Below, piece by piece: positions 8,916 through 45,194 of a DNA stretch of 45,847 nt. Source of the stretch: a virus; the UHGV virus genome UHGV-0097969. One strand, written 5' to 3'. The first letter of the stretch is position 1, and every line of letters starts with the position of its first letter. The position numbers and the translations under genes are program-made. Below the pieces are notes generated by a model. That model searched no databases. It was not told where the DNA came from and saw nothing but the letters and a program-made list of their open reading frames with translations.

Positions 8916-9437
8916 TTATAAACCTAAATCATCACGAACGCTTTTTAATATATCTTCACCATCAAAGATACAAATAAAGTTCAACTTATCAATTTCCAGG
9001 ACTTCTTTTCCATCAATAAATAATTTGATATAGAGAACTTCAAATTCATTCTCTGAATCAGTAGCCTTTGCCACCTGTAGCGAACCTAAATCCAGTTTTT
9101 TAGGGTTTAGCTTCATTGAAGCCCGAATAGGAACCGTTTTATATTTTCCTGTTCCTGCATCATAAACCTGCTGGCTACCGCGAAAATCTACCTGATGCGA
9201 TGAGGATAGAAATAATTTTGTACCAGCAGAGGTCAGAGTTCGCCATTTAAGAGAGACAGTCATTGGTTTGAAATGCCCCAGCGTTCCGCTCTCAAGCTCT
9301 CCAGCGATACCTGCACCACTAACAGTTTCTGTCATCATCTCAATTGATGGCAGCTTTGCGTCAGCAACACCGATAATACGGTTTCCCTCACCGTATACTG
9401 TAAAGTTAATAAGTCTCTCAGGAATTTGATTGCTCAA
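8916..9437 (-). CDS. tail tube protein
   Basis: 173 aa directly downstream of the sheath gene. Confidence 0.7.
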   Translation of the reverse strand: MSNQIPERLINFTVYGEGNRIIGVADAKLPSIEMMTETVSGAGIAGELESGTLGHFKPMTVSLKWRTLTSAGTKLFLSSSHQVDFRGSQQVYDAGTGKYKTVPIRASMKLNPKKLDLGSLQVAKATDSENEFEVLYIKLFIDGKEVLEIDKLNFICIFDGEDILKSVRDDLGL

Positions 9438-18624: not shown

Positions 18625-19185
18625 TTATTCTTCCTGCTTAATAAATCGGGATTCCTGGAGCGCCTGAAGCGCAAAATTAATCTCGTCTTCAATAATGCGT
18701 TCGATCTCCCTGGCTGTTTTGCCTTCACAACGGGGAGCTGCTCTTGGAGCAATACTAAATAAGCGGCTACGCAATTCATTAGCTGCCAGAAATGCATCAT
18801 CCCTGACCGCATCTTTAGCGATGAGAGAGCCTTCCTTTTCTTCAAATTCAAGGCGTTTCAGCTTTGCCTGATAAATTTTTTCTGCAGTCTTAGCCTTGTT
18901 GAATTGCACCGCAACACCGGAAGTACCACCAGCTAATCCGGCATCATCAGCGGGTAACTCTGGTTGTTCCGAAGATATCCCATGCCCTCTTTTTCCGTTT
19001 TCAGCAGATACCTCACGACCAACCTGTCGGCTCGCTTCATAAGCCGCACTAGCTTTATCAAAATCCAGCTTGCCGCTTTTCAGCACTGGAATGCGACCGG
19101 AACGACAGAGCTTCGTAACCATTGCCGGAGAAATACCTTTCCGGCGGGCAAACTCTGACTTACTGACGATGGCCATTACTTGCAA
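18625..19185 (-). CDS. terminase small subunit (Nu1-like, N-terminal HTH)
   Basis: Track start is TTG; likely ATG at 19176 overlapping the upstream stop (TAATG); HTH-like N-terminus; immediately upstream of large terminase. Confidence 0.55.
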   Translation of the reverse strand: MQVMAIVSKSEFARRKGISPAMVTKLCRSGRIPVLKSGKLDFDKASAAYEASRQVGREVSAENGKRGHGISSEQPELPADDAGLAGGTSGVAVQFNKAKTAEKIYQAKLKRLEFEEKEGSLIAKDAVRDDAFLAANELRSRLFSIAPRAAPRCEGKTAREIERIIEDEINFALQALQESRFIKQEE

Positions 19186-19766
19186 CCATTAGCAAGATAC
19201 TGAACAAATCCCTCATGCGTTTCATGCGCGTCGTGGTACTGACGATAAACATCCAGCAACAATGCAATTTCCATATCCGTCGCGGGAATACGTTCTTTAT
19301 CAATAGCCAGGTACTTAATTTGAACAACAGGGGAAGAATTATCGTCTTCTTCCTGCGGCTGTTCATCGCTTAACATTTCGTCAAGCTCTGCATCATTAAA
19401 CCCAAGCAGATCAATATCAAAATCATCATCCATTAACTCTTTGACTTCTTCGGCCAGAAGCTGCATATCCCAGCCAGCATTTAAGGCAAGCTTGTTATCT
19501 GCAATCCTGTAAGCCTTCTTCTGTTTTTCAGAAAGGTTACTCAACCGAATCGCCGGAACTTTATCCATTTCCAGAATTTCGGCTGCTGCAAGCCGCCCAT
19601 GCCCCGCAATCAGTTCATTCTTTTCATCGATCAGCACAGGATTAGTGAAACCGAACTCACGGATACTGTTCACCAACTGTTCAACCTGCTCATCTGAATG
19701 AGTCCGTGAATTTTTGGCGTATCTGAGCAGCTTACCGACTGGTAAATATTCGATTTTTAGAGCCAT
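19176..19766 (-). CDS. ParB-like nuclease domain protein
   Basis: 196 aa; ParB N-terminal motif ...LIAGHGRLAAA...; coupled to small terminase. Confidence 0.65.
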   Translation of the reverse strand: MALKIEYLPVGKLLRYAKNSRTHSDEQVEQLVNSIREFGFTNPVLIDEKNELIAGHGRLAAAEILEMDKVPAIRLSNLSEKQKKAYRIADNKLALNAGWDMQLLAEEVKELMDDDFDIDLLGFNDAELDEMLSDEQPQEEDDNSSPVVQIKYLAIDKERIPATDMEIALLLDVYRQYHDAHETHEGFVQYLANGCK

Positions 19767-20322
19767 TTTTTAACCGCCATAACACAACAGGTTAAAGAAA
19801 ACTGTTTAACTTATTGATACTAAAAGAGAAAAATGACGATCTTTTTACTCATAAAAAATCACACAAACCAGCATAATCATCTGATTTTATTAAGTTTTTA
19901 TAAGTAAAAAGGATCTTGAGATGGTGTTTTGGTTAAAAGATTGGATGTATTTGCATGATTTATAACGATTTTTATCAGAACAACATCACATTGGTTAAAG
20001 ATCTGCGCGTATCTTGATGATCTAAAAGAAATTTTCTACTTTCTTTTTACCAGCACAAATACAGCAAAAAATCACATTTTCCCGATATTTTTCAATGAGA
20101 TGAGTAAATTTCTTTTACCGCAACTTTTAACCTAACTTTTTTCACGTTTAGCTAGCCGAACATCGGGGTTCGAATGACCCGCATCCAACGCTTTTGGCCA
20201 GAAGGACCCAATTCTGCCGGACGATGAAACGATGCTCGTGCTCCCCCACGGACAGCCAGCGAGCGACGCTACAGAACACAGTGAATACACCCTGCATAAC
20301 AACACCATCAACCACACGATGA

Positions 20323-21042
20323 TTAACGAGAGAACGTCTTAGAAAGGATGTCATCAATAGCCTTTGTGACTTCATCAGCAAACGCATCCTCACCAGCACG
20401 CAGCGCCACGCCATGCCAATCAAGACGCTGCGAATAGTTAGGTTGCTGGATGAACGTAAGGATCAACGTAGGACGCCGCCCAACGCGCTGCCAGACGCCT
20501 GGTTGAAGCGGGTTACTTGTACCAGGTCGAACAACAAAAAACTCCGTAGGCTTGCCCTGACGGCGATTTTGATGCGCATCTCGCTGAACTCTTAGGCCAG
20601 ATAAGACCTGCTGTAATTGCCCCCGCGAAATATTCCCGTATTTGTCCAGCTTTGCGCCGGGACCAGGAGCAAGCTGCCAGCCGTTAGGCAAATATCCACC
20701 AGCCCTTAGCGCCCCTTCTGAGCGTTTGTACTGTCGTTGGCCGCCTTCGATTTGCGGAGTCAACGTTACAGGGGCTGGCGTTCCACCCCATTCACGAGCA
20801 TACACAATGGCTGTAGGATCACTCTTCTTTGCGGCTAAAACGTAAGTAGAGTTCTGAATCCACGGCGTGGGCCTGTCAAATACCCGATTAATTTCATCCT
20901 TAATCGCAGCCTGAGAAGCCTTTGCCGTTCTGGTTGCTGTAAGCGCCATTGCGAACGGCAATTCGCGTTCTTCAAGGCGCTGGAGTTGTCGTTGAATATC
21001 CTGAGAAGAAAAATCCATCTTTATCTCAATTCTGTCAGCCAC
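20323..21042 (-). CDS. hypothetical protein
   Basis: 239-aa ORF, Gln/Arg/Pro-rich, no recognised motif. Confidence 0.4.
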   Translation of the reverse strand: MADRIEIKMDFSSQDIQRQLQRLEERELPFAMALTATRTAKASQAAIKDEINRVFDRPTPWIQNSTYVLAAKKSDPTAIVYAREWGGTPAPVTLTPQIEGGQRQYKRSEGALRAGGYLPNGWQLAPGPGAKLDKYGNISRGQLQQVLSGLRVQRDAHQNRRQGKPTEFFVVRPGTSNPLQPGVWQRVGRRPTLILTFIQQPNYSQRLDWHGVALRAGEDAFADEVTKAIDDILSKTFSR

Positions 21043-21058
21043 CAGCGCCTCCTACACA

Positions 21059-22438
21059 CTACTTAATCAGCGGCCGGAAAGCCGCCAGCACATCATCAGA
21101 TCGTCCGATTGTTGAACCACCAGGCAACGGCAACTCAAACTCAAAACGAACAGCTTTCTCCAGACTCGCCCAACTAAGGGAATCATCGTTAATGACGTGC
21201 AAATACCAGCTCTTACAGTTGAATATTGACCGCTTAATCCTGAAACCATGTACACGACACAACTGCTTCACTTCATCATCAGAGTGAAACTTCTGGTAAA
21301 ACCAGTGCCCCTTCCGGTACAACGCGGTAAAACCGTTATGATCAATAAAATAAAGCCGGCTTTTGGAACTCGCCGCTTGTGTTTGCTTCAGGACTGTTTC
21401 CAGCTCTCCACGGCTACGACCAGAAAAGAATATTGACCCACCAGCTTTACACAGGCCTTTCAGAACCGTCAGAACGGACCATTCAGCCTCGACACTATCG
21501 ACCGAGTTCAAAACGCTATCGCAAATCACGTAGTCGTAACGCCCTCGCGTTTTTAAGTCGTCCACCAGCGTATCAATCATCCGGTTTGTTGCGGTCCTAT
21601 CCAGAGTGTTTCCAGCGCCCTTACGGCGGAAAAGCTCGAGATCATGCAGGTTATATCCCTTTGCCCTGAGCATTCGCGCGTAGTCTCCCTGCCCCGAACC
21701 AAAATCAATTCCTCTTGGCGTCTTGGCAATGATCGGGAGGATCAACGACTCATACAGGTTTGATTTCAGGCTGCCACCATTACGCAACCGCATAAGCTGC
21801 GCATACGTCTGGATGTATGTTGTTTTCTCCAGATGAGAATACTCAAATACACCATAAGTTTTATTCAGATAACTTTGGTATTTTTCCTTCTCAACATCAG
21901 GGATCACAAACACCGTTAGCGGTGTGCGCGTCATTTTCGCTGCTAATGCATACTGAGCACAGTGAATAACCTCACCAGACTGAGTAGCAACACAACCACC
22001 CCACGGACCATACTTGATAACCAGTTCCGCTATGTTCTTTCGAACATATGCCATTTTCGCGCGCATATTGCCTGAGATCTGGCTTGCCGATACCTGAACA
22101 AAACCATGCTTATCTTCCAGACCGGACACCCTGCAACGCTCATCTCCGCTATCAAAATCCGTTCCGTTATGCAGTTGGTTAAACCGAACTTCGTCGTATA
22201 CCGTCGTTTCACAGGGCAACACATACACCGCAGCACGCGTTATTCCCAACTTACGTAGCGCCTTCGTCCTTTGGTGTCCCGCCACCAGCAAATCGCCGCG
22301 CACTATCAATGGCTTCACAAGCCCCAGCTCCCTGACGCTTTCGGCCAGCCTCGCAAGATCATCCTCACCGATAAAACGCGGGTTATATTCCGCGCCGCGT
22401 AGGTGCGTTATGTCGTAATTCAGGTGAAGCATCAGCAC
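21059..22438 (-). CDS. ParB-like N-terminal domain fused to class I SAM-dependent methyltransferase
   Basis: N-terminus ...LLVAGHQRTKALRKLG; C-terminal IDFGSGQGDY... and YDYVICDSVL Rossmann motifs; no DPPY/NPPW motif seen. Confidence 0.6.
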   Translation of the reverse strand: MLMLHLNYDITHLRGAEYNPRFIGEDDLARLAESVRELGLVKPLIVRGDLLVAGHQRTKALRKLGITRAAVYVLPCETTVYDEVRFNQLHNGTDFDSGDERCRVSGLEDKHGFVQVSASQISGNMRAKMAYVRKNIAELVIKYGPWGGCVATQSGEVIHCAQYALAAKMTRTPLTVFVIPDVEKEKYQSYLNKTYGVFEYSHLEKTTYIQTYAQLMRLRNGGSLKSNLYESLILPIIAKTPRGIDFGSGQGDYARMLRAKGYNLHDLELFRRKGAGNTLDRTATNRMIDTLVDDLKTRGRYDYVICDSVLNSVDSVEAEWSVLTVLKGLCKAGGSIFFSGRSRGELETVLKQTQAASSKSRLYFIDHNGFTALYRKGHWFYQKFHSDDEVKQLCRVHGFRIKRSIFNCKSWYLHVINDDSLSWASLEKAVRFEFELPLPGGSTIGRSDDVLAAFRPLIK

Positions 22439-23055
22439 ACCTCCCCAGCCAGCAATGCGGATACAAATCCGATATAGCTGCCATTATCATCAACATAACG
22501 AGACACCGCGCAGTCAAAACGATCCGCTTCCTCATCCGTTGCCGGGATTTTATGACCTCCAAATGACAGGTACTGAACTTTTACGCCTGATTTGGCCTCA
22601 TCCTTCTCAAATGGGATATCCATACCCTCTGTGTCATCGTAGACCGCCGCACTCAATAAGTTATCCAGTTCGCGCTGAGTAAAACCAATTGAGTCCAGAG
22701 CAAAATCATCGGCCGCAAGATCTGCAAGCTCCGCGCTTAACAACTCTTCATCCCAACCAGCATTCAGCGGAATACGGTTGTCGGCCAGACGATATGCCTT
22801 CTTCTGATTCTCCGTTAGCCCAGCCAGAACAATGCAGGGAACATCATCCATCCCCAACTGAGTGGCCGCAGCAATTCGACCATGACCAGCAATTACAACG
22901 TTGTTCTCGTCTATCAGGATCGGATTAGTCCATCCGTACTCCTGTATGCTGGCAACAATCTGATCTACCTGCTCCACGGAGTGTGTGCGAGCGTTCTTTT
23001 CATAACCAATCAACACAGAAAGTGGTAAAGAAACCACATTAAGATGTTTTGTCAT
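22432..23055 (-). CDS. ParB-like nuclease domain protein (paralog of 19176-19766)
   Basis: 207 aa; ...VIAGHGRIAAA...QKKAYRLADNR...LNAGWDEELL, collinear with the 196-aa paralog. Confidence 0.65.
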   Translation of the reverse strand: MTKHLNVVSLPLSVLIGYEKNARTHSVEQVDQIVASIQEYGWTNPILIDENNVVIAGHGRIAAATQLGMDDVPCIVLAGLTENQKKAYRLADNRIPLNAGWDEELLSAELADLAADDFALDSIGFTQRELDNLLSAAVYDDTEGMDIPFEKDEAKSGVKVQYLSFGGHKIPATDEEADRFDCAVSRYVDDNGSYIGFVSALLAGEVC

Positions 23056-23300
23056 GCCGTTTATCCGCTAAAATCCCCTCGCTTGTGCAAGCAAGTGGGC
23101 CTCGGTTTGTATCCACGGCACCCTGTGGGTATGAATGACTGTCGTCAGGTCGCAACTGACGGCGGTCGCCCACCTTCCAGTAATAAAAAAGCCACCAGCA
23201 TTAACTCCACAGCGAGCTGGAGTTAATGAGGCAGCTTTGGTTTGCGCATTATCGCAGCCCCTGATAAGCACAAGAGCTGCTGTAATGCGTTACGCAGGGA

Positions 23301-23618
23301 TCAAACGGAGGCGGCCGTTTCGTCGTCTTCAAGTACCGCGCCTTCTGGCAAATCAACACAGGCAAAAACAGGGCAGCCTGGATAACGATCATCTTCCATC
23401 GCAATCAGCATCGACTCACCGAACCACTCTGTGGTAGCACGACCATCAGCCGCCTGATAGTGAATCAGATACTGGTTTTCGCCATTTGCATACTGAGCAC
23501 GGGCTTGAACTTCTCCCCACTCTTCACTGATACGCATTGTTACCAGTTGGGATAATTCAAACTTAAACGGAACAGACTCTGCACCAATGGCAATCGGTTT
23601 ATCTTCTTTCTTTTCCAT
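23301..23618 (-). CDS. hypothetical protein
   Basis: Likely ATG at 23618 with AGGTGA upstream (track start 23687); preceded by a terminator hairpin. Confidence 0.4.
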   Translation of the reverse strand: MEKKEDKPIAIGAESVPFKFELSQLVTMRISEEWGEVQARAQYANGENQYLIHYQAADGRATTEWFGESMLIAMEDDRYPGCPVFACVDLPEGAVLEDDETAASV

Positions 23619-23667
23619 AACATCACCTGAAAATAAAAAGCCCCGCGACACCGCGAGGCTGTAAGAG

Positions 23668-23820
23668 TTACTTTCGATATAAATCAAGGTGCATTTGCTC
23701 TCGCTTACGCCGAAAAGCTCTCTGCGCCACTAAGATGCGCCACAGGACACCAGCAATAACCACCAGCGAGAAACAAAACCACACGGCCATAATCACCAGA
23801 AAAATGCCAAGACCATTCAT
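23668..23820 (-). CDS. small membrane protein (50 aa)
   Basis: Hand-translated MNGLGIFLVIMAVWFCFSLVVIAGVLWRIL...; ATGA overlap with upstream ORF; terminator follows. Confidence 0.35.
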   Translation of the reverse strand: MNGLGIFLVIMAVWFCFSLVVIAGVLWRILVAQRAFRRKREQMHLDLYRK

Positions 23821-24023
23821 GAAACTATCCATTCTTCAATGAATATCTCCAGTAATGTCAAGAGATACGCCGTACCCAGCGCGGTTCCTACCGATATAGC
23901 TAAGACAAACCTCAAAGATAACGAGGTGTCTTTCGCTTTTCTCCAGACGTAAGCGCCAGCCAGAAATACCAACAAATCTCTTATTGGAAGCGGGAACCAG
24001 AACAAATCACTCGGCAAGTCCAC
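23817..24023 (-). CDS. small membrane protein (68 aa)
   Basis: Two hydrophobic segments; coupled to flanking ORFs. Confidence 0.35.
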   Translation of the reverse strand: MDLPSDLFWFPLPIRDLLVFLAGAYVWRKAKDTSLSLRFVLAISVGTALGTAYLLTLLEIFIEEWIVS

Positions 24024-24025
24024 GG

Positions 24026-24481
24026 TTATATCCTTCCATTCATTTTTATCGGGTGACCAGATAGCCTTACGCTGTTGAGCTGTAAAGCTCCGGTATCAAC
24101 TAACTGATCAACTAACATGATTAGAGCTTCATATTCAGACTGATAGCTAACCTGACGCATTCGACCGCCGTTGTTCTCCAGAATGTCGGCCACCTTTGCA
24201 GCCAACTCGCTTAGACAGGAGAACTTATTCCCATATATCGTTTTATACTCGCGCTTCTGGCATTCTTCGGCTTGCGGCTGGTTATCGAGAGCTATCAGCG
24301 ACCGATGGCTATCAAGGAAGTCCACAATCTCATTCAGGCACTCTTTAGCTGCCTCATCGTGACTTTTTCCGTATGCTTCATGGAGGACTTTCATCCTCAT
24401 CATTGCTCCGTCACATATAGTCGAAAGCGCGTAAAGCACATCACTAACCGACATTTCTTTTTTGGTGCTTGTCGAAGGCAT
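24026..24481 (-). CDS. hypothetical protein
   Basis: 151-aa ORF in the small-gene block downstream of repeat cassette a. Confidence 0.4.
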   Translation of the reverse strand: MPSTSTKKEMSVSDVLYALSTICDGAMMRMKVLHEAYGKSHDEAAKECLNEIVDFLDSHRSLIALDNQPQAEECQKREYKTIYGNKFSCLSELAAKVADILENNGGRMRQVSYQSEYEALIMLVDQLVDTGALQLNSVRLSGHPIKMNGRI

Positions 24482-25022: not shown

Positions 25023-25138
25023 CGGGTTATCTCCGGTTTAACCAGGGCGGGTATCGCTCGGTTTCGGGTATAACCTTAGGAAATTTTTTCCCACCTGTAA
25101 AGCACTTTTTATATAAATCTATAATTATATAATTCTAT
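25023..25138 (-). promoter_or_regulatory. conserved promoter/leader cassette, copy a
   Basis: About 108 bp near-identical to 31667-31768 and 41761-41876; TTTACA-N17-TAAGGT promoter-like, conserved leader with SD, AT-rich octamers upstream. Confidence 0.5.
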
Positions 25139-25722
25139 GACAGTTGCCAGAGAGCATCATGCAACTGGATACCTCCGTTGCACTGGTTGCCCCAGCCATG
25201 CCAGCCATCAGGTAAATCACCGCGAGCAAACAGCTCAATACGAGGAACATCACCTAACAGTCTTACCAGCTTGTCACGAACCACATCAGGCTTCCGTGAA
25301 TGTTCCAGACGAGGCGATGTAAACGACTGAATGATCCCCGCATCAAGGCGGGTCGGCAGTTTGCCTTTTACCGCAAACAAGCAATCTTCACTGTTCGCAC
25401 GAGTCATATGCCCCATCCCCATCACCAGCTTATCTGGTTGTCGGCTACCACATTTGTTCCATGTAAAGCCCTTCATGGTCATAAGCCTGAATCCCCATGC
25501 TTTCACCACCAGCAACGCTTCTTCTGGCTGAGTCGGAACCCACCACATGGCCAACAAACACGATTCAGGATTAGCAAGCTGCCAGACAGGAATACGAGCA
25601 ATATCCTCAGCTTTCATCGTTGGATACTTAAAACCAGCGCCACGACTCCCATCCTTACACTTGTCTTTGTATTCCCAGGGGGGATCTGCATAAATCAGAT
25701 TAAACAATGCAATTGCCTCCAT
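25135..25722 (-). CDS. DNA N6-adenine methyltransferase, MT-A70 family
   Basis: N-terminal motif ...LIYADPPWEY... (DPPW). Confidence 0.75.
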   Translation of the reverse strand: MEAIALFNLIYADPPWEYKDKCKDGSRGAGFKYPTMKAEDIARIPVWQLANPESCLLAMWWVPTQPEEALLVVKAWGFRLMTMKGFTWNKCGSRQPDKLVMGMGHMTRANSEDCLFAVKGKLPTRLDAGIIQSFTSPRLEHSRKPDVVRDKLVRLLGDVPRIELFARGDLPDGWHGWGNQCNGGIQLHDALWQLS

Positions 25723-26028: not shown

Positions 26029-26104
26029 TGGTGGCCCCTACCGGATTTGAACCGATGACCGTGCGATTATGAGTCGCCTGCTCTAACCACTGAGCTAAGG
26101 GGCC
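26029..26104 (-). tRNA. tRNA with CAU anticodon (Ile2 or Met), CCA encoded
   Basis: Reverse complement GGCCCCTTAGCTCAGTGGTTAGAGCAGGCGACTCATAATCGCACGGTCATCGGTTCAAATCCGGTAGGGGCCACCA folds as a cloverleaf (7-bp acceptor, GCTC/GAGC D stem, TTCAAAT T loop); first half resembles ileX-type as recalled. Confidence 0.85.
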
Positions 26105-26273
26105 ATATTTGATTTGTTTGTCTGGTGTGGCGCCGCGTACGAAAATCCCAGCCAATAAATTCAGGATTTTTGGACGCGGCGGCATATCAGACAAACATGG
26201 TTGATGCGTGCGCTCATGAGAAAAGCGCATAGAATGTTGTAACTATATATTTATATAATTATAGAAATATATA

Positions 26274-26483
26274 TTACTTTTGGCAGTTGATTTCCCATGC
26301 CCTGTTATGAGCCAGAATATCTTTCTTTGTCTGGCGGTCCATAACATCGATGTCGTGATCAGTAAGGTAGATTGGCTTTACCCAATCACAGGCGGTATCA
26401 ACCACCACCGGGACGCTTCCACGACTCCCGCAGCTCGCGATCAACATCGTCATCAGCCATATGGTTAACACTCTGCTGTACAT
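26274..26483 (-). CDS. o-spanin (Rz1-like lipoprotein), overlapped frame
   Basis: Lipobox-like LIASC after a hydrophobic N-terminus; overlaps the 3' end of the i-spanin-like ORF in another frame. Confidence 0.45.
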   Translation of the reverse strand: MYSRVLTIWLMTMLIASCGSRGSVPVVVDTACDWVKPIYLTDHDIDVMDRQTKKDILAHNRAWEINCQK

Positions 26484-29879: not shown

Positions 29880-30245
29880 TCACTTCAACTCCTCCCGACG
29901 ACGTTCCTGAAGCTCTAGCATTGCGGCTCGGAAATCCTGCCACCATTCCTCATCTGCAACGGGGGTGTTTCGCTCCAGCACCTTGTCCGCATCAGCGATC
30001 AGGTTTGCCAGACTCTTGTCTGAAATCTTCGTTACCGGAGTCGTTGGTTGCTCAACCTGCCCGATAGGTTTTATCGTGCTCAAAAGGAGGCGACGGCTGG
30101 AAAGTGGCGACCCACAACGGCGCCCATCTTCCTTGCGATATGTTTCTTTCGGACCAACACACCAGGTTGTCGGCGTTTCGCGTAACTTCACTTTTTTCTC
30201 ACCATCAATGGTGATGATTATTCCGGTATGGGTTTTGATGCTCAT
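29880..30245 (-). CDS. hypothetical protein
   Basis: 121-aa ORF, 4-nt overlap with upstream gene. Confidence 0.35.
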   Translation of the reverse strand: MSIKTHTGIIITIDGEKKVKLRETPTTWCVGPKETYRKEDGRRCGSPLSSRRLLLSTIKPIGQVEQPTTPVTKISDKSLANLIADADKVLERNTPVADEEWWQDFRAAMLELQERRREELK

Positions 30246-30544
30246 GCCACAGCCCCTCTCAACGGCTTAACTTTGGCTAATAAGGTGTTAAACAACATGG
30301 AGTTAGGATTCATGCCAAATGGCAATTCCGGTTTAGCGGAGTAGTACAGGCAACCATTTATTTTCCTGGTTGTTATCTGTCCTTCGGCAACCATGCTTCT
30401 CAGTCTGCAACGCATAGAGTTCTGCGACACACCAATGTGCTCCGCGATTACGTCCACTTTTGAACATGGGTGATCGGTCAGGAAATTAATCACATCTTGG
30501 GGGTTAATAATTTTGCGTTTCATTGTCGAGGCGTCCTTATACAT
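30242..30544 (-). CDS. putative winged-helix DNA-binding protein
   Basis: 100 aa; AT-rich octamer motif directly upstream (30541-30562). Confidence 0.4.
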   Translation of the reverse strand: MYKDASTMKRKIINPQDVINFLTDHPCSKVDVIAEHIGVSQNSMRCRLRSMVAEGQITTRKINGCLYYSAKPELPFGMNPNSMLFNTLLAKVKPLRGAVA

Positions 30545-30592
30545 TTATATAATTCTATATACAGCGGGAGACATCCCGCCGTAGGCTTACTG

Positions 30593-31660
30593 TCAGGCTT
30601 TCAATAGCGATTCTTTCAGATATCGGGCATCAGCCAGGGCGTTTGGAGTAATCTTGCGAACCCATGCATTACGGGTTGGACTCCACTTAAAGGCGCGTGA
30701 TTTAAGCAGCGAACGAATGTTTGCCTCTGGTTTGCCAGGGAAATAAAACAGGATGCGGTTATCCTCTGGATCTATCTCCATAGAAAAGCCGTCGTATTCT
30801 TCGCGCTGTGCTCCTGTTACAGACTTGACCGATTCAAGCTCCTTAATACGGCTCTGTAGTCGTTTGATTTCGGCGTTATTGTTGCTCAGTGCGTATGAAG
30901 GGAATCCGATGCGCCCACAGAAATCTCCGGCCAGTAACTCTTTGGCTTCGCTTTCTGTAAACCTGAGATCGATTAATGCAGAAAGCTGCTGTATTTGGTC
31001 TTTTTTGTATTTGCGAATGGCCTTATTTGCGGCCTTCATTTTGACGTGTGACTTCATGCAGCCTTGCAGCTTACGAAGCAACTTAAATAGCGCATCAGGA
31101 TCATCAGACGAAATTCCATTACGACCAACACCTGCGGCTTTGCTCTCGTAGTGTGATGCTTTACTTTCGCATTCAACAAACGCTTTTCTGAATAACGCAT
31201 CAGCTTTAGACAAACGGCGGCGATGGCCTTTCGCGCTATAATGGTCAACTAAAATCGGCTGGCCTAACGGGATCACATCCAACAGGTCATGCGCTCGCTT
31301 ATGCGCTACCGCACCTTCTTTTCTGGCTTTTTCTGCACGAGCAATATATCGGGCAAGACGCGCGTTCTGGCGTTCCTGATAGGTGTTTACGTAATCATCT
31401 CCGCGCTGCTGCTGTTCAAGCCATGCTTTGCGCAGATCTTCTGTTACGTCCACCAGCTCCGCAGGGATACAACCTGTTTGGGCTTCATAAGAGTAACCAT
31501 CCTCATAGATGCGCCCATCGTCTTCAACAAAGAAAAAGGTTTCGTGCTCATCGCTTTTGACCATACGACCATTAACATGGCGTAATAGGTAGCCAGTATC
31601 AGTGCTCAACAGGCTGTTAGGGTTGTTGATCCAGTCAGAAATAATTACTTGTTTATTCAT
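30593..31660 (-). CDS. DUF3560-like protein, first gene after repeat cassette b
   Basis: ATG at 31660 (MNKQVIISDW...); motif ...IPLGQPILVDHYSAKGHRRR... resembles DUF3560; the track N-terminal extension is the translated repeat. Confidence 0.5.
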   Translation of the reverse strand: MNKQVIISDWINNPNSLLSTDTGYLLRHVNGRMVKSDEHETFFFVEDDGRIYEDGYSYEAQTGCIPAELVDVTEDLRKAWLEQQQRGDDYVNTYQERQNARLARYIARAEKARKEGAVAHKRAHDLLDVIPLGQPILVDHYSAKGHRRRLSKADALFRKAFVECESKASHYESKAAGVGRNGISSDDPDALFKLLRKLQGCMKSHVKMKAANKAIRKYKKDQIQQLSALIDLRFTESEAKELLAGDFCGRIGFPSYALSNNNAEIKRLQSRIKELESVKSVTGAQREEYDGFSMEIDPEDNRILFYFPGKPEANIRSLLKSRAFKWSPTRNAWVRKITPNALADARYLKESLLKA

Positions 31661-31666
31661 CAGATT

Positions 31667-31768
31667 TCTCCGGTTTAACCAGGGCGGGTATCGCTCGGTT
31701 TCGGGTATAACCTTAGGAAATTTTTTCCCACCTGTAAAGCACTTTTTATATAAATCTATAATTATATA
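31667..31768 (-). promoter_or_regulatory. conserved promoter/leader cassette, copy b (P_R'-like position after the Q-like gene)
   Basis: Near-identical to copies a and c; lies about 60 bp downstream of the Q-like stop. Confidence 0.5.
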
Positions 31769-31830
31769 TTTATAGATTTTCCGATATTCCCGATGCCTAC
31801 AAATCACCAAAACAGCTCAAAATGACACTT

Positions 31831-34181: not shown

Positions 34182-34199
34182 TTAACGAACTCCAGTCAA

Positions 34200-34317
34200 A
34201 CCACGATATGTGGTATTAAAACCACATATCGTGAGTTTTTCAATGGGCGAAACAAAAAATAACCTTCTATTTGTGGTCCACCTCTCGTCTTACCATGTGA
34301 AAACCACTAAATGTGGT
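34200..34317. promoter_or_regulatory. operator cluster ACCAC-N5-GTGGT in the divergent immunity promoter region
   Basis: Perfect sites ACCACGATATGTGGT (34200-34214) and ACCACTAAATGTGGT (34303-34317), partial sites at 34221-34233 and 34272-34280. Confidence 0.55.
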
Positions 34318-34354
34318 AATGTATAAATAACCCACCATTCACGATTGATGAGAC

Positions 34355-35011
34355 ATGAAAAGCAACGACGAGAACATCAAGAAAGAAATAGGTCTGCGCA
34401 TTCAGACTCTACGGAAACAATCCGGCATGACTGCCGGAGATCTCCAGCAAGTCACTGGAATAGGCTTAAGCACCTTGCAGAACTATGAGGCCGGATTAAG
34501 ACAACCATCTATACCTGCCATCAAGAAAATCGCGCACGCCCTGAAAGCATCAGCGCCTTATATCGCGTGCTTAACAGATAACCCGTTCCCACCCCAGAAT
34601 ACTAACGCTCCTGTTATTCCTGGGCTTGTAGCTATAAAAAATGACATAGCATCGCACGCCGGAGAAAAGCCAGTGCTGGCGATAGAACAGGAGATTCTAC
34701 GAAGCAAGAACATCAACCCATCGTCTCTGTCAGTTCTCCAGAGCAACGATGAGTTAATGTCACCAACAATATCCCCAGGCTCCCAAGTCCTGATTAATAC
34801 AGACGATACAGAGATTCATGAGGGGATCTATGCCCTTGAAGACAGAAATGGCCTGGTTGTTTTGAGGCACTGTAGAGTCATACCGGGTGACAATGCTGTT
34901 ATGCTGTCAACCGAAAGGGATGCTGAAATGAACACTAAGCATCTGAATAACGAGGAATTTAAGCGTTATAAAGTTCTGGGCCGCGTAGTTAGTGTTGTCA
35001 ACTGGTTATGA
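34355..35011 (+). CDS. CI-like repressor (HTH plus S24/LexA-like C-terminal domain)
   Basis: HTH ...QSGMTAGDLQQVTGIGLSTLQNYEAG...; C-terminal domain of LexA/CI type. Confidence 0.8.
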   Translation: MKSNDENIKKEIGLRIQTLRKQSGMTAGDLQQVTGIGLSTLQNYEAGLRQPSIPAIKKIAHALKASAPYIACLTDNPFPPQNTNAPVIPGLVAIKNDIASHAGEKPVLAIEQEILRSKNINPSSLSVLQSNDELMSPTISPGSQVLINTDDTEIHEGIYALEDRNGLVVLRHCRVIPGDNAVMLSTERDAEMNTKHLNNEEFKRYKVLGRVVSVVNWL

Positions 35012-35500: not shown

Positions 35501-35606
35501 TTATATGATTATAGATTTATATAATTATATAAAACACTTTTCATCAGCCAAAAAGTTGGTTATGCTTACCTCGTTCTATAAATATAGATTTATAGAATTA
35601 TATAAC
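35501..35606. repeat. AT-rich octamer arrays upstream of parA (candidate centromere/operator)
   Basis: ttatatga ttatagat ttatataa ttatataa at 35501-35532 and tatagatttatagaattatataa at 35580-35606; similar array at 36281-36314. Confidence 0.45.
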
Positions 35607-35613
35607 CAAACAC

Positions 35614-36282
35614 ATGGAGTCTCGACAAATGACTATCTCTGTAGGTATTTTCAACGGAAAAGGCGGCGTAACCAAATCAACAATTGCCCGTGCTTTAGCA
35701 GTTGCTTATGCAAAGGCCGGCTGGAATGTATGCCTGATCGATATGGATGTGCTTAACGGAACGGTAACGCGTTGGGTACAACGCAGAATGGCCAACAATA
35801 TCGAACCTGCAATCGCGGCGCAGCCGTGCGGCACACCATCACAAGTCCAGAAAATCATCGAATCAGAAGTATACGACCTGGTTATCGTCGATGGCGGTGC
35901 CTACGCATCTGAATCAGTACCGAAGCTCTCTGAATTTCTGGATATGGTTATTTTGCCAACCAGATTCTCTACCGATGACCTGGAAACCACCGTTAACACA
36001 GCTCATGGCATCGTTAAAAAGGGTGTGCCAATCAAGAAAATTTGCATGGTGTTCTCAGGCGCGGCTGAAAACGAAGCCGACTACATTGAAGCCCAAGAGT
36101 ACCTGGCTAATACGCCATACTTTGTTGTCGATAAGTACATTCCCCACAAGCCAGCTCTGAGCAAAGCTCAGGATAAGGGCTTAAGCCTCATTGAGTGCTC
36201 ATACGTTGCGCCACGCAAAAAGGCAGACGACGTTATTCAGGGGATTATCAACCAGCTTGAGGCTCTGACTACTGCCGCGTAA
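35614..36282 (+). CDS. parA: ParA/ParF-type partition ATPase (type Ib)
   Basis: Deviant Walker A GIFNGKGGVTKST; about 220 aa; probable true start ATG at 35629 with GGAG upstream. Confidence 0.85.
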   Translation: MESRQMTISVGIFNGKGGVTKSTIARALAVAYAKAGWNVCLIDMDVLNGTVTRWVQRRMANNIEPAIAAQPCGTPSQVQKIIESEVYDLVIVDGGAYASESVPKLSEFLDMVILPTRFSTDDLETTVNTAHGIVKKGVPIKKICMVFSGAAENEADYIEAQEYLANTPYFVVDKYIPHKPALSKAQDKGLSLIECSYVAPRKKADDVIQGIINQLEALTTAA

Positions 36283-36325
36283 TATATAATTATAGTTTTA
36301 TAGATTTATATAAGAGGGGATACAC

Positions 36326-36574
36326 ATGGCCGCACCATCAAAACCACCAAAGAAGAACAGCAAAGGCGTACCGCCATCGATCGAACAACCGCAGGTTTTC
36401 GACCCGACTGAAACGCCAACCAGAACCAAATCAGGTGGGGCACAAATGGCGTTTAACGTCGACCCTGAATTTAAACGTGAGTACAAAACATTCGCCAGCT
36501 CAATGGATATGTCATTGAAAGAAGTGCTGACAAAATCTTTTGAGTTACTCAAGGCTCAATACAACCAGAAGTAA
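36326..36574 (+). CDS. ParG-like ribbon-helix-helix centromere-binding protein
   Basis: 82 aa; flexible basic N-terminus then RHH-like ...QMAFNVDPEFKREYKTFASSMDMSLKEVLTKSFELL; immediately after parA. Confidence 0.55.
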   Translation: MAAPSKPPKKNSKGVPPSIEQPQVFDPTETPTRTKSGGAQMAFNVDPEFKREYKTFASSMDMSLKEVLTKSFELLKAQYNQK

Positions 36575-36795: not shown

Positions 36796-36819
36796 TAAAA
36801 AAGGCCCCCGAAGGGGCCT
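36796..36819 (-). terminator. intrinsic terminator between convergent units
   Basis: AGGCCCC-cgaa-GGGGCCT stem with T-run on the minus strand. Confidence 0.5.
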
Positions 36820-36824
36820 AATCG

Positions 36825-36947
36825 CTACTTGCTGCTAATGTTTATCGTCACATTCAGAGCGTTATCAGTAATCTTCCAACCCTCCCCATGTGGCGTAAAC
36901 AAAGCTCCAGTAACAACGATAAAAATACACATGTAGTATTTTTTCAT
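36825..36947 (-). CDS. small hydrophobic peptide (40 aa), putative
   Basis: MKKYYMCIFIVVTGALFTPHG...; AAGGG SD; terminator directly after the stop. Confidence 0.3.
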   Translation of the reverse strand: MKKYYMCIFIVVTGALFTPHGEGWKITDNALNVTINISSK

Positions 36948-37261
36948 TGTGTGGCCCTTACAGGCCGTTTCACGGCATCCCCACCGACGAAAATGACGCG
37001 AGAGCAAGCACGCTGTTTGTGCCTGCGTGGTACGGCAAGTGGATAATCCTTTCCTGAAAGTCAGTGCCCGGGTGCGAATCGGCGGAAAGGCCCCAAGCCA
37101 TATTACACGTCATACCCTTCATAATGAAGGAATAAAAAACGCTTTTATTACATAAGATTACACGTAAATAAGTTAAAAACCTTCATTTTGCATGAGCTAA
37201 TGAGCTAAATTTTTTTATATGAATAGTGGACTATTCACCTCAGTTGGGTAAGAATGTAGTT

Positions 37262-38094: not shown

Positions 38095-38203
38095 TTGACA
38101 TGAATGCGCCATTGGTGGACACTTTCCGAGCCGTAGCAAAATCTACGGTCGGGATTGGAACCCCGTAGACACAATGGCGCATACCGCGTTAGCGGTTTTT
38201 TTA
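38095..38203 (+). promoter_or_regulatory. promoter plus structured leader with intrinsic terminator (attenuator or small RNA) ahead of the antirepressor operon
   Basis: TTGACA at 38095-38100; hairpin CCGTAG-caaaat-CTACGG; long-range GCGCCATTG...CAATGGCGC; terminator ACCGC-gtta-GCGGT plus T7 at 38183-38202. Confidence 0.35.
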
Positions 38204-38368
38204 TGCGTAAAGCACTGCTACACCCAAATTATGGTGGGGCGTGCGGGGGAGTCGTAAGACTCGCCGGTTCGTCATTGTGTCCGGTAGTTCCAACCCAGCA
38301 CGTCTCACCACCCAATGATTGGAACCTGACGGTGGTGAGTATCCTTAACCTTTAAGGGAATCATCACA

Positions 38369-41379: not shown

Positions 41380-41760
41380 TTACTTAACGAGGAATAAAAA
41401 TGGTTTATTGTTCGGCGGTGTAATCGGGGCTGGCTCGCTTTTGCTTATGCGATCAGTGTACCAGGCCAGCTCCTTGTCAAAGTAAGCCTGATTAAAATAG
41501 GCCATGAATGTAGTTTCAAATCCATAACGACCGCTAATACGCAGCATCTGATTGCCGTTCTCTGTTTCCAGATATACCTGGGCACGTTCCTGATTCTCCT
41601 TCAGCCAGGTTAAAGCCTCATCGCATGAGGACACACGATACTCATCATCGTAGCAGTCATCGATGCGGCTTGAGGAAGAACGGCAAATCACGCCAACAGA
41701 ACCAGCCAGGATAGTTTGAATTTTAAGGAAAGCGTTTTTGCGGATTTTAATCATGCTCAT
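41380..41760 (-). CDS. hypothetical protein, first gene after repeat cassette c
   Basis: ATG at 41760 preceded by the conserved leader. Confidence 0.45.
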   Translation of the reverse strand: MSMIKIRKNAFLKIQTILAGSVGVICRSSSSRIDDCYDDEYRVSSCDEALTWLKENQERAQVYLETENGNQMLRISGRYGFETTFMAYFNQAYFDKELAWYTDRISKSEPAPITPPNNKPFLFLVK

Positions 41761-41876
41761 CGGGTTATCTCCGGTTTAACCAGAGCGGGTATCGCTCGGT
41801 TTCGGGTATAACCTTAGGAAATTTTTTCCCACCTGTAAAGCACTTTTTATATAAATCTATAATTATATAATTCTAT
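41761..41876 (-). promoter_or_regulatory. conserved promoter/leader cassette, copy c
   Basis: Near-identical to copies a and b (one G/A difference in the leader). Confidence 0.5.
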
Positions 41877-41880
41877 AAGC

Positions 41881-43401: not shown

Positions 43402-43636
43402 TTATTACATCTACGATGGTAGGAAATCTTTTCCTATGTGGCAATAGAAATTTACCACATTTCGTATAAGACAAGTTTTCTATACCTAATAGGAAATCAT
43501 GATTCTTACGTTTTATCGCGTTCTGATGGCTACTGTGTGCGTATTTATCGACGTTTATTGATAAGGCTCGCCCCTTCCTCCTGCAAAGCCTGGCCGTAGG
43601 CCTTATTTCGGCCTTATATAAATTGATTTTGTATAG

Positions 43637-44032: not shown

Positions 44033-44881
44033 TTAATGTTGGAGTGATTTCCAGGTCTTTCTTAGCCTGTTATAACGCTGCTCAACGAGGGAGCGTAAAT
44101 ATGCAAGGTCAGCTCCAGGATACATGCCATCAGCAAATTCCTGGCTAACCTCTCTAGTGATTTGATGACGAAGTTCGGCCTCTCCCTTTTCCCGAACAAG
44201 ACGCGCAGCTCTCTCCGCTGCTTTCTGTTTTGCCTTTATCTCTCTGGCCGTCTTCCTCTGACGCCATACATTCTCCATCTGCTCCTGAATAACAATACGC
44301 TTATAATCAGCCTCCGTTATCGCTTTTTTAAGCCGTTCGCTATTCTTCGCATTGAAGTAATTAAGTTTCTGGCTAACCGCACGTCTCCATGCTTGTTCAG
44401 TAATACCAACGGTTTCCAGCAGTTGATCACGAATCTCTATTTTCGCTGGCCAATACTGTTTATTCACCCGATCCCAGCGACGTTCATAATCAATAAAACC
44501 TAACGCTTTCAGTTGCGACAACGCCCTTGTACAGCGCGTTATAGACTTGTTCCCAGCTTCGGATACGGTAGACAGGCCGCAAAAATCAGCCAACGCCTCA
44601 GCACTAGCCAGAACCCGCTTAGAAATGATGTTTACATGGTGCAAAATCGCAGCGATCACAGCATTAATCGCCCGACGACGATGCTCGTTTATCCGGCGCT
44701 TCCGCTCTGACGGTTGATTAACGTAGAACGCAACCTCACACGTAAGATCACGCCCATTAATGCGCTGTAAAGCATCAGATAACACCAGCGGCAGCTTGTG
44801 CGTATGGTGCTTTGGAGGCTGGAACTCCGGCGACAAATTACAAACGTAAGCTGAACGTAGAGACGGCATTGGTCTATCCAT
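44033..44881 (-). CDS. repA: replication initiator RepA, IncFII RepA1-like
   Basis: ...CGLSTVSEAGNKSITRCTRALSQLKALGFIDYERRWD... resembles R100/R1 RepA1; basic C-terminus; in-frame upstream ATG at 45013 would add 44 aa. Confidence 0.75.
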   Translation of the reverse strand: MDRPMPSLRSAYVCNLSPEFQPPKHHTHKLPLVLSDALQRINGRDLTCEVAFYVNQPSERKRRINEHRRRAINAVIAAILHHVNIISKRVLASAEALADFCGLSTVSEAGNKSITRCTRALSQLKALGFIDYERRWDRVNKQYWPAKIEIRDQLLETVGITEQAWRRAVSQKLNYFNAKNSERLKKAITEADYKRIVIQEQMENVWRQRKTAREIKAKQKAAERAARLVREKGEAELRHQITREVSQEFADGMYPGADLAYLRSLVEQRYNRLRKTWKSLQH

Positions 44882-44925
44882 ATGTTCGCTCTTGCGTCCA
44901 CGGAAAACCAACGTATAATGGGAGT

Positions 44926-45006
44926 TGTCGAGGCGCCCATGGATTGTTGTTGTTGGTTTTCCGTGGATGTCGCAAGAAGCCCGCAGATTTATCTGCGGGC
45001 TTTTTG
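44926..45006 (+). ncRNA. CopA-like antisense RNA in the repA leader
   Basis: Promoter TTGCGT-N16-TATAAT (44892-44919) and terminator GCCCGCAGA-ttta-TCTGCGGGC plus T5 (44979-45005), opposite to repA. Confidence 0.45.
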
Positions 45007-45194
45007 TTTCCATATCTGGTCACTTTCCAACCAGACACCCACAATCATAACCACGTTACGTGGTTTTAAGAGAACTCTACCACAACACTTTCGGTCATGC
45101 ACGAAGTCTCTCACTGATCGAACGATAATCCACCAGTAAAAGGATCTAAATTGGATCTCGTTTTGCGAGCATCATACTACTGGCCTAACTCCAG

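Follow-up and report, generated by a model that had tools for sequence, protein, structure and literature searches.

Eight octamer arrays in an enterobacterial phage-plasmid as candidate binding sites of a small ribbon–helix–helix partition protein

Introduction

Which protein recognizes the AT-rich octamer arrays that lie both at the partition (par) operon and at the phage control regions of a single genome, and what might it do at each? The question is raised by virus genome UHGV-0097969 (45,847 nucleotides; this whole stretch is called the window below), a 45.8 kb Escherichia/Yersinia myovirus-type phage-plasmid with an IncFII RepA and a type Ib par operon. A sequence-only reading had proposed that one small DNA-binding protein recognizes the arrays at par and at the phage promoters, and had named a ParG-like protein and, as an alternative, a winged-helix protein. 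Our analysis supports the idea of one small protein. We consider it likely that the arrays, at par and phage sites alike, are the cognate binding sites of an 82 aa ribbon–helix–helix (RHH) protein encoded directly after parA, which we call the centromere-binding protein (CBP). The predicted RHH fold, the ParA neighbourhood and a genome-wide co-variation of motif and protein residues all point in this direction.

In type Ib systems the small downstream protein is the centromere binder and autorepressor (PMC3130281). ParG binds 4 bp boxes separated by 4 bp AT spacers, giving an 8 bp period (PMC3130281), while the heptad arrays bound by the ω protein overlap three promoters and double as parS sites, ParA being activated only with four or more contiguous repeats (PMC9499535).

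Results and discussion

Eight arrays of an 8 bp unit

The whole window was scanned for at least three in-phase 8-mers with at most one mismatch to WTATAKAW or its reverse complement. Exactly eight sites are returned and no others. These are the eight sites of the sequence-only reading, all of which exist, with refined coordinates that lie 0–9 bp from the earlier ones. The unit has the consensus TTATAKAW, is 8 bp long and is repeated in strict register, with three or four in-phase units per array: four is the modal number (seven of the eight arrays), and the array at 30537 has three. Positions 3–5 (A-T-A) are invariant in the 31 units and position 2 is T in 30 of them.

Three arrays lie on the plus strand at par: array A (35501–35532; four units, TTATATGA TTATAGAT TTATATAA TTATATAA), array B (35574–35605; four 8 bp units) and array C (36282–36313; four 8 bp units in the parA–CBP intercistronic gap). 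The dispersed arrays are on the minus strand. One belongs to each of three promoter cassettes (cassette 1, 25109–25140, reading TCATAGAA TTATATAA TTATAGAT TTATATAA on the minus strand; cassettes 2 and 3, 31746–31777 and 41847–41878, with the geometry of cassette 1), one precedes a winged-helix gene (30537–30560; three units here and four in pEA15_3 and vB_YpM_39) and one lies upstream of a tRNA gene (26243–26274; four units). A repeated module of ∼110 bp accounts for all three cassette arrays, so that the eight arrays amount to about six independent sites.

The pattern TATA-N4-TATA-N4-TATA occurs 11 times, at seven of the eight sites. In block shuffles that keep the local AT-richness (blocks of 32, 48 or 100 bp) its mean number is 0.007–0.02 and its maximum 1. 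The motif search corrected for AT content that had been proposed along with the sites therefore gives a frequency far above the local-composition expectation. A self-similarity scan of the window that uses no motif gives a signal at period 8 alone, with none at periods 6, 7, 9 or 10.

In principle such arrays could serve no dedicated protein and be AT-rich UP-elements, bendable DNA, slippage-prone microsatellites or sites for host nucleoid proteins. Their AT-richness, their place at four or five promoters where an UP-element would lie, the TATAAT-like hexamers within them and the polymorphic unit number would all fit. We nevertheless regard this explanation as extremely improbable: the 8 bp phase is strict, the TATA core is invariant and the occurrence far exceeds what local composition predicts, arrays are also found downstream of a transcription start and between cistrons, and elements from related Enterobacterales hosts (E. 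coli/Salmonella versus Serratia/Pantoea) differ by a discrete switch of the core, which neither a host factor nor AT-richness in general would call for. Iterons of a replication initiator were considered as well and rejected. RepA is of the IncFII type and no array lies near repA (44033–45013), the nearest being at 41847.

The partition operon and its small RHH protein

The par locus has the hallmarks of type Ib: a small ParA without a helix–turn–helix (HTH) domain, a small gene directly downstream and repeat arrays around the par promoter. parA (35629–36282, plus strand) encodes a 217 aa deviant-Walker-A ATPase with GKGGVTKS at residues ∼10–17 and no N-terminal HTH, which is the type Ib size. 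It matches Pfam CbiA/MipZ/ParA (starting at residue 5–7) and phrog_164; NCBIfam ParA_partition aligns residues 5–206 to model positions 2–200 of 203, below the cut-off, and the nearest solved structure is TP228 ParF (E = 3e-4). The CBP gene (36326–36574, plus strand; 82 aa, previously unannotated) begins 44 bp past parA, and a Shine–Dalgarno (SD) sequence lies between array C and its start.

Upstream of par, a 124 aa gene ends in a terminator-like GC hairpin that is directly followed by array A. The putative par promoter (35538–35566, plus strand) has a −35 hexamer TTTTCA (35538–43), a 17 bp spacer and a −10 hexamer TATGCT (35561–66), a weak σ70 consensus match (8/12), and array A occupies about −73 to −42 relative to it. 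Array B extends from about +1 to about +32 in the region of the par transcript and is followed by the SD sequence GGAG (35617). An equivalent hexamer pair lies between arrays A and B in five relatives (L003, L007, L008, L009 and L014: Salmonella, Pantoea, Serratia and two metagenomic loci). Short-repeat arrays at the par promoter are present in the window and nine related loci; the position of the third par array varies among relatives: in some it separates the two genes and in others it follows the CBP gene.

CBP consists of a basic, disordered N-terminal tail (conserved K..KG.PP), a β-strand QMAFNVD and two helices (47–59 and 64–80). Direct sequence searches with CBP give no Pfam, NCBIfam or PDB match. 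It belongs to phrog_6024, a family of 'unknown function', and an exhaustive profile search collects ∼100 cluster representatives of 75–90 aa. In their alignment a basic N-terminus, MA..KPPKK..KGxPP, is followed by a variable linker and a C-terminal segment, LNFKV-xxEFxxEFKxFA-xxxxSMxxLLxxxFExYK.

An AlphaFold2 model from a 39-sequence alignment gives a strand–helix–helix fold for residues 41–80 with a predicted local distance difference test score above 90, and residues 1–40 are disordered. The same prediction from ten near-identical sequences gave a poor model with meaningless Foldseek matches. Searched against the PDB with Foldseek, the 39-sequence model finds RHH DNA-binding domains in nearly all of its top 50 matches, including PutA, CdbA, StnY, AmrZ, CopG, Arc and the ParD and AtaR antitoxins, with target template-modelling scores of 0.65–0.86 and root-mean-square deviations of 1.2–2.1 Å over ∼43 residues. 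The single Foldseek E-values are weak because the domain is so small.

Profile comparisons are in agreement with this fold. Pfam RHH_10 is matched weakly by ten of 39 family members, hhalign aligns the entire RHH domain with TP228 ParG (probability 49%, E = 1.7e-4) and a PDB profile match to ParG (1p94) has an E-value of 0.87. A Pfam scan of the 39 members finds no ParG and no Omega_Repress match. On the strength of the model, CBP is best described as an RHH protein of ParG/ω-like architecture that belongs to neither family by sequence. The earlier label 'ParG-like' is thus apt for fold and architecture and does not extend to sequence membership, given the absence of a Pfam ParG match (0/39) and the modest hhalign probability.

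Homologues of CBP sit directly after a ParA of 213–218 aa in nine of nine related loci examined (L003 and L007–L014). The homologues occur in Pantoea, Serratia and Shewanella elements, in phage-plasmid contigs from metagenomes and in one contig that resembles a conjugative plasmid.

The array motif follows two residues of CBP

Related loci were gathered by exact-protein look-up of contigs. They include Salmonella Weltevreden plasmid NZ_LN890526 (L003; ∼80% identical to the window in par), a Pantoea element (L007), the complete 46.8 kb Serratia marcescens plasmid p2 (L014; CP083756.1), the conjugative-plasmid-like contig (L010) and a differently organized phage (L013). Arrays with an 8 bp period flank the par promoter in each of them, and the core of the unit differs. 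This core tracks positions 42 and 44 of the CBP β-strand, which alternate with the hydrophobic residues Met41, Phe43 and Val45 and are predicted to face the major groove of the DNA. With Ala, Ser or Gly at 42 and Asn at 44 (M-[A/S/G]-F-N-V) the unit is TTATAKAW (window and L003). Asn42–Asn44 (x-N-F-N-V) goes with TTAAAKAT (L007, L008, L011 and L014), Asn42–Lys44 (x-N-F-K-[V/I]) with TTA(A/G)CGAW (L010, L012 and L013) and Thr42–Asn44 (L-T-F-N-I) with ATAYRTAW (L009). For L011, L012 and L013 the motif class was predicted from the strand sequence before the DNA was looked up, and all three predictions were correct.

The co-variation extends over whole genomes. An 8-mer IUPAC scan at one mismatch could not separate the AT-rich motif classes, and exact 6 nt cores in 8 bp phase were counted instead, with a local-shuffle expectation of 0.00 in every case. 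The window has seven TATAKA arrays plus a weaker eighth and no TAAAKA array, and the Salmonella plasmid has eight and none. The numbers are reversed in the Serratia plasmid (no TATAKA and eight TAAAKA arrays), in Pantoea (none and seven) and in L011 (none and four). The dispersed arrays thus carry the local par motif in all elements counted, the motif being swapped at par and dispersed sites together. The eight Serratia sites are orthologous: three are at par, three before cassette-like promoters, one at the '...GGACGTCTCGACAATG' start and there is one more. The site at '...GGACGTCTCGACAATG' (L014 38069–92, with the swapped motif) is the counterpart of the 30537 array. In L011 the core promoter of the window's cassette (TTTACAGGTAGGAAA..TTTCCTAG) is retained and the units upstream are TTAAAKAT, a naturally occurring exchange of the motif at a promoter that is conserved in other respects. 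In the non-phage plasmid contig L010 arrays occur around par only. The same contig has a perfect (TTTATTTC)x5 tandem repeat at 9015–9064, ∼280 bp upstream of parA, which is unlike its AACGA-type par arrays.

The arrays might instead be bound by another phage regulator, either the MarR-like winged-helix protein (30242–30524), the conserved 124 aa protein whose gene precedes parA or an HTH protein. As the elements diverge as wholes, their other proteins differ between the motif classes too, and the 124 aa gene keeps its synteny with par throughout the phage-plasmids. Against this, 8 bp arrays flank the par promoter in L010, which is without the CI, 124 aa and winged-helix genes, and in L013, and the motif class follows two predicted DNA-facing residues of CBP, forward predictions included. 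CI has distinct operators (ACCAC-N5-GTGGT) and the cassettes carry a separate palindrome (AGGAAA-N3-TTTCCY). Another regulator is accordingly very unlikely in our view, and the winged-helix alternative of the sequence-only reading is not favoured, since arrays flank par in L010 and L013 without phage regulatory genes.

Two more candidates were set aside. The CI repressor was rejected as octamer binder, its own operators being evident in the cI/early region, and the three late-region ParB/Srx-domain proteins are in our view unlikely binders, as the arrays track the CBP strand and flank par in L010 and L013, where the regulatory context is different.

Dispersed arrays at phage control regions

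The three ∼110 bp cassettes (25023–25140, 31661–31777 and 41761–41878, minus strand) are near-identical within the genome and differ between the window and the Salmonella plasmid, which indicates concerted evolution. On the minus strand each consists of the array of four 8 bp units, AAAGTGC, TTTACA, 17 bp, TAAGGT, a conserved leader of ∼45 nt and GGAGA-N7-ATG. In cassette 1 the array lies 7 bp upstream of the −35 hexamer TTTACA (25101–25096), which is followed by the −10 hexamer TAAGGT (25078–25073). The cassette arrays occupy about −74 to −43, matching array A at the par promoter.

Downstream of cassette 1 is an operon in which methyltransferase and ParB/Srx-domain genes are followed by the terminase, packaging and late genes. 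Cassette 2 is upstream of a DUF3560/primase-like gene (30593–31660, minus strand). Cassette 3 lies just past the terminator of a RelE/HTH toxin–antitoxin operon and upstream of a gene of unknown function (41380–41760, minus strand) that is followed by a small HTH gene.

The −35/−10 spacer of each cassette contains the palindrome AGGAAA-N3-TTTCCY (25078–25092, 31715–31729 and 41816–41830). A further, perfect copy lies at 43421–43435, between repA and downstream small open reading frames. The palindrome is kept in L003 and L011, and Serratia has the form AGGAC..GTCCT. A regulator distinct from CBP probably uses this palindrome as its operator, and the separate place of the palindrome in the spacer implies that another regulator acts on the core promoter.

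The 30537 array has on one side a hairpin that follows the DUF3560 gene and on the other the SD/ATG (30524) of the MarR-like winged-helix gene; the leader here is similar to the parA leader (…CTCGACAATG). The initiation region of the MarR-like gene (30524–30560, array-AAGGACGCCTCGACAATG) resembles that of parA (35574–35631, array B-..GGAGTCTCGACAAATG), also in Serratia L014, which suggests that an array-plus-leader module was duplicated. The 26243 array abuts a −35-like TTACAA (26242–26237), 139 bp upstream of tRNA-Met (26029–26104, minus strand).

Conservation and array length

The Salmonella Weltevreden plasmid has eight arrays at orthologous places with diverged flanks, and between its arrays A and B the promoter sequence is no longer recognizably that of the window. 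The position of array A is kept in five relatives. Among E. coli plasmids array C has four, six or seven units and array B four or five, all indels being multiples of 8 bp; array B has five units in E. fergusonii pRHB23-C02_4. In the near-identical plasmids L004–L006 (E. coli ECOR39 RCS82_pI, AR_0067 unnamed2 and the E. fergusonii plasmid) TTATAGAT is present once, three or four times in array C, and an extra TTATAGAA is found in array B. Substitutions within units are confined to the degenerate K/W positions, for example TTATAGAT to TTATATAT (L001/L002 versus the window). The retention of eight positions, the 8 bp indel steps and the substitutions within the degeneracy mark the arrays, at the level of sequence comparison, as being under selection.

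A model for CBP at par and at the dispersed sites

From these observations we infer binding, its stoichiometry, repression, centromere activity and the sign of an effect on the cassette promoters, as follows. One CBP dimer would occupy each 8 bp unit, such that four contiguous dimers would coat each 32 bp array cooperatively, in the manner of ParG on its 4 + 4 bp units and of ω on heptads (PMC3130281, PMC9499535). With array A on one side of the par promoter and array B on the other, their occupation would lead to autorepression. Arrays A, B and C together would form the centromere, at which the disordered basic tail of CBP would engage ParA. CBP would also dock at −74 to −43 of the three identical promoter cassettes, before the winged-helix gene and upstream of the tRNA gene. 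The genome would then have eight dispersed partition-complex sites, wiring occupancy by a partition protein to phage transcription units, and the five arrays outside par could act as extra centromeres, as promoter modulators or as both. As to the sign of the effect on the cassette promoters, our guess is dampening, through masking of the zone of the UP-element and the C-terminal domain of the RNA polymerase α subunit (α-CTD).

Each dispersed array is plausibly a minimal centromere, as four units match the minimum that ω needs to activate ParA. The fixed placement of the cassette arrays in the UP-element/α-CTD zone makes a transcriptional effect plausible too. By analogy with pSM19035, whose arrays do both, the two roles need not be mutually exclusive.

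If the dispersed arrays were extra centromeres only, raising the number or size of partition complexes like the four sopC sites of N15 and having no transcriptional effect, their proximity to promoters would reflect the scarcity of intergenic space in a compact genome. Arrays C, 30537 and 29756 (the last in L014), none of which is upstream of a promoter, would suit this role, as would the flexible location of the third par array and the number of units, four being the minimum for ParA activation in pSM19035 (PMC9499535). The geometry of the cassettes is harder to accommodate. The 7 bp spacing to the −35 hexamer is fixed in all three, this juxtaposition persists in Salmonella, L011 and Serratia even with a swapped motif, and the arrangement is identical to that of array A at the autoregulated par promoter. 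We judge a purely centromeric role unlikely, though a serious possibility.

Conversely, the dispersed arrays may be operators only, with CBP a global repressor or activator and the centromere limited to the par-proximal arrays. The position at −74 to −43 in three cassettes, as at the par promoter, is what operators would show, and ω represses several promoters through such arrays (PMC9499535). Every pSM19035 promoter array, however, also has centromere activity (PMC3130281, PMC9499535), and dispersed and par arrays are indistinguishable in sequence or unit number. Operators alone are in our estimate an improbable description.

Several points weigh against CBP as the common binder with a role at phage promoters. 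Our literature search found no binding, chromatin immunoprecipitation, stability or reporter data for the CBP family. An autoregulated CBP should have a roughly constant occupancy, which is hard to reconcile with switching phage promoters. A σ70 consensus scanner calls neither the par nor the cassette promoters, the matches being weak, so that their status as promoters follows from conserved hexamer positions only. No recognizable promoter lies downstream of arrays 30537 and 36282, and a purely regulatory role therefore does not fit all sites. The correlation of motif and residues comprises four classes in ten loci without correction for phylogeny and is suggestive, and with whole elements co-diverging another co-inherited protein could track the motif.

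Comparison with known partition systems

A close parallel is the δ/ω system of pSM19035, whose RHH ParB, ω, acts at many sites and as a global regulator. In both, a small RHH centromere-binding protein has a flexible N-terminal tail, the repeats are short, contiguous and in mixed orientation with one dimer per repeat (presumed for CBP), and several arrays per replicon overlap or abut promoters, with a combined operator and centromere use that we propose here by extension. The arrays of pSM19035 lie at the copS, δ and ω promoters, whereas those of CBP are at phage cassettes, a tRNA gene and a regulator gene. The former are 7 bp WATCACW heptads in groups of 7–10 units and the latter 8 bp TTATAKAW octamers of unrelated sequence in groups of four. 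The extra sites of pSM19035 are at copy-control or toxin genes, and the present element is a Gram-negative phage-plasmid.

The ParF/ParG/parH-OF system of TP228 is likewise a type Ib operon with a small ParA and an RHH centromere-binding protein with a disordered tail. It shares the core plus AT-rich spacer, the 8 bp period and the direct and inverted units located upstream of and over the promoter (PMC3130281). It differs in its ACTC core and 20 contiguous boxes, compared with TATAKA and 12 units in three par blocks here; the window moreover has five further arrays elsewhere in the genome, and the relation of CBP to ParG is weak and at the level of the fold only.

In pB171 par2 (parC1-parA-parB-parC2) repeat clusters flank a small parA-parB operon on both sides (PMC4270457). 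Relatives with arrays after the CBP gene have a similar layout, the comparison being by description only; no dispersed sites are described for pB171.

N15 SopAB also belongs to a phage-plasmid, with four dispersed sopC centromere sites in phage regions. It is of type Ia, with a large HTH ParB (SopB), palindromic sites and a linear genome, while the window, a circular replicon of the IncFII type, combines a type Ib system and its RHH protein with tandem octamers. The N15 Sop system reportedly facilitates late gene expression, to go by the title of the 2008 work of Ravin, Rech and Lane (J Bacteriol 190:3538, as cited in PMC11652158).

The element and its neighbouring loci

The par region is 98–99% identical to that of three Yersinia pestis myophages (vB_YpM_39, 41 and 44). 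Matches are found to 61 circular PLSDB plasmids, nearly all of ∼47–52 kb and from Escherichia, Salmonella and Klebsiella hosts, among them the 48.5 kb plasmid of E. coli ATCC 25922; further relatives occur in Serratia, Pantoea and Shewanella. The annotation of pEA15_3 describes a contractile-tail phage with an IncFII-type RepA, a RelE/HTH toxin–antitoxin pair, a CI-like HTH/S24 repressor, a Rha-type protein and a ParA gene followed by a small 'hypothetical protein', and it is this combination that identifies the element as a phage-plasmid. Membership of the pSLy3 group was rejected, as that group is SSU5-related and larger. A literature search found no paper on this element family or on octamer repeats.

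By the pEA15_3 annotation, three proteins with ParB/Srx N-terminal domains are encoded ahead of the terminase genes (∼19176–23055, minus strand), one of which is annotated as methyltransferase-domain-containing in the Salmonella relative, and an MT-A70 methyltransferase is encoded at 25135–25722. These proteins are outside the partition system. Three ACCAC-N5-GTGGT inverted repeats (34190–34330), between the CI-like repressor gene (34355–35011) and the leftward early operon, are likely CI operators.

Rfam matches to isrK and C4 antisense RNA (38130–38202 and 38227–38315, plus strand) sit upstream of 63 aa and 393 aa Rha/antirepressor-like genes, and the region is a P1/P7-type immI (C4-ant) immunity module. 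Just 3′ of the par operon, a full-length Rfam ryfA match (36797–37095, minus strand; 134.6 bits) may be a type I toxin–antitoxin-like locus. In the Serratia relative (CP083756.1) blaTEM-1 lies beside a recombinase gene at 23202–24062; this phage-plasmid lineage can thus carry resistance genes.

Significance

Phage-plasmids are common carriers of resistance genes, and the coordination of their maintenance with the phage programme is poorly understood. New here are the uncharacterized CBP family, its octamer arrays of four units, the conserved spread of these arrays to the promoter cassettes of a widespread enterobacterial phage-plasmid lineage and, apparently and as read from aligned loci, a two-residue recognition code. 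A predicted function can be assigned to the unannotated phrog_6024 family, with its ∼100 cluster representatives.

The boldest version of the model is one that we consider speculative and more probably wrong than right. It holds that the partition protein is a lineage-specific, genome-wide coupling device, in which lytic/early transcription is tied to the state of the partition complex through eight shared sites and a two-residue recognition code. If this were true, the state of the partition complex would be the ParA-engaged, copy-number-dependent occupancy of four-unit arrays by CBP, and one set of eight sites would be read for both plasmid segregation and the lysogeny/lysis programme. If the code holds, residues 42 and 44 would be re-programmable, with Ala/Asn specifying TATAKA, Asn/Asn TAAAKA and Asn/Lys TARCGA, and a two-residue specificity code of an RHH centromere protein could provide orthogonal partition or incompatibility tools. 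The relatives supply natural motif-swap controls for experiments, and the element family as a whole is a compact, testable case of a type Ib partition protein that apparently has eight dispersed targets.

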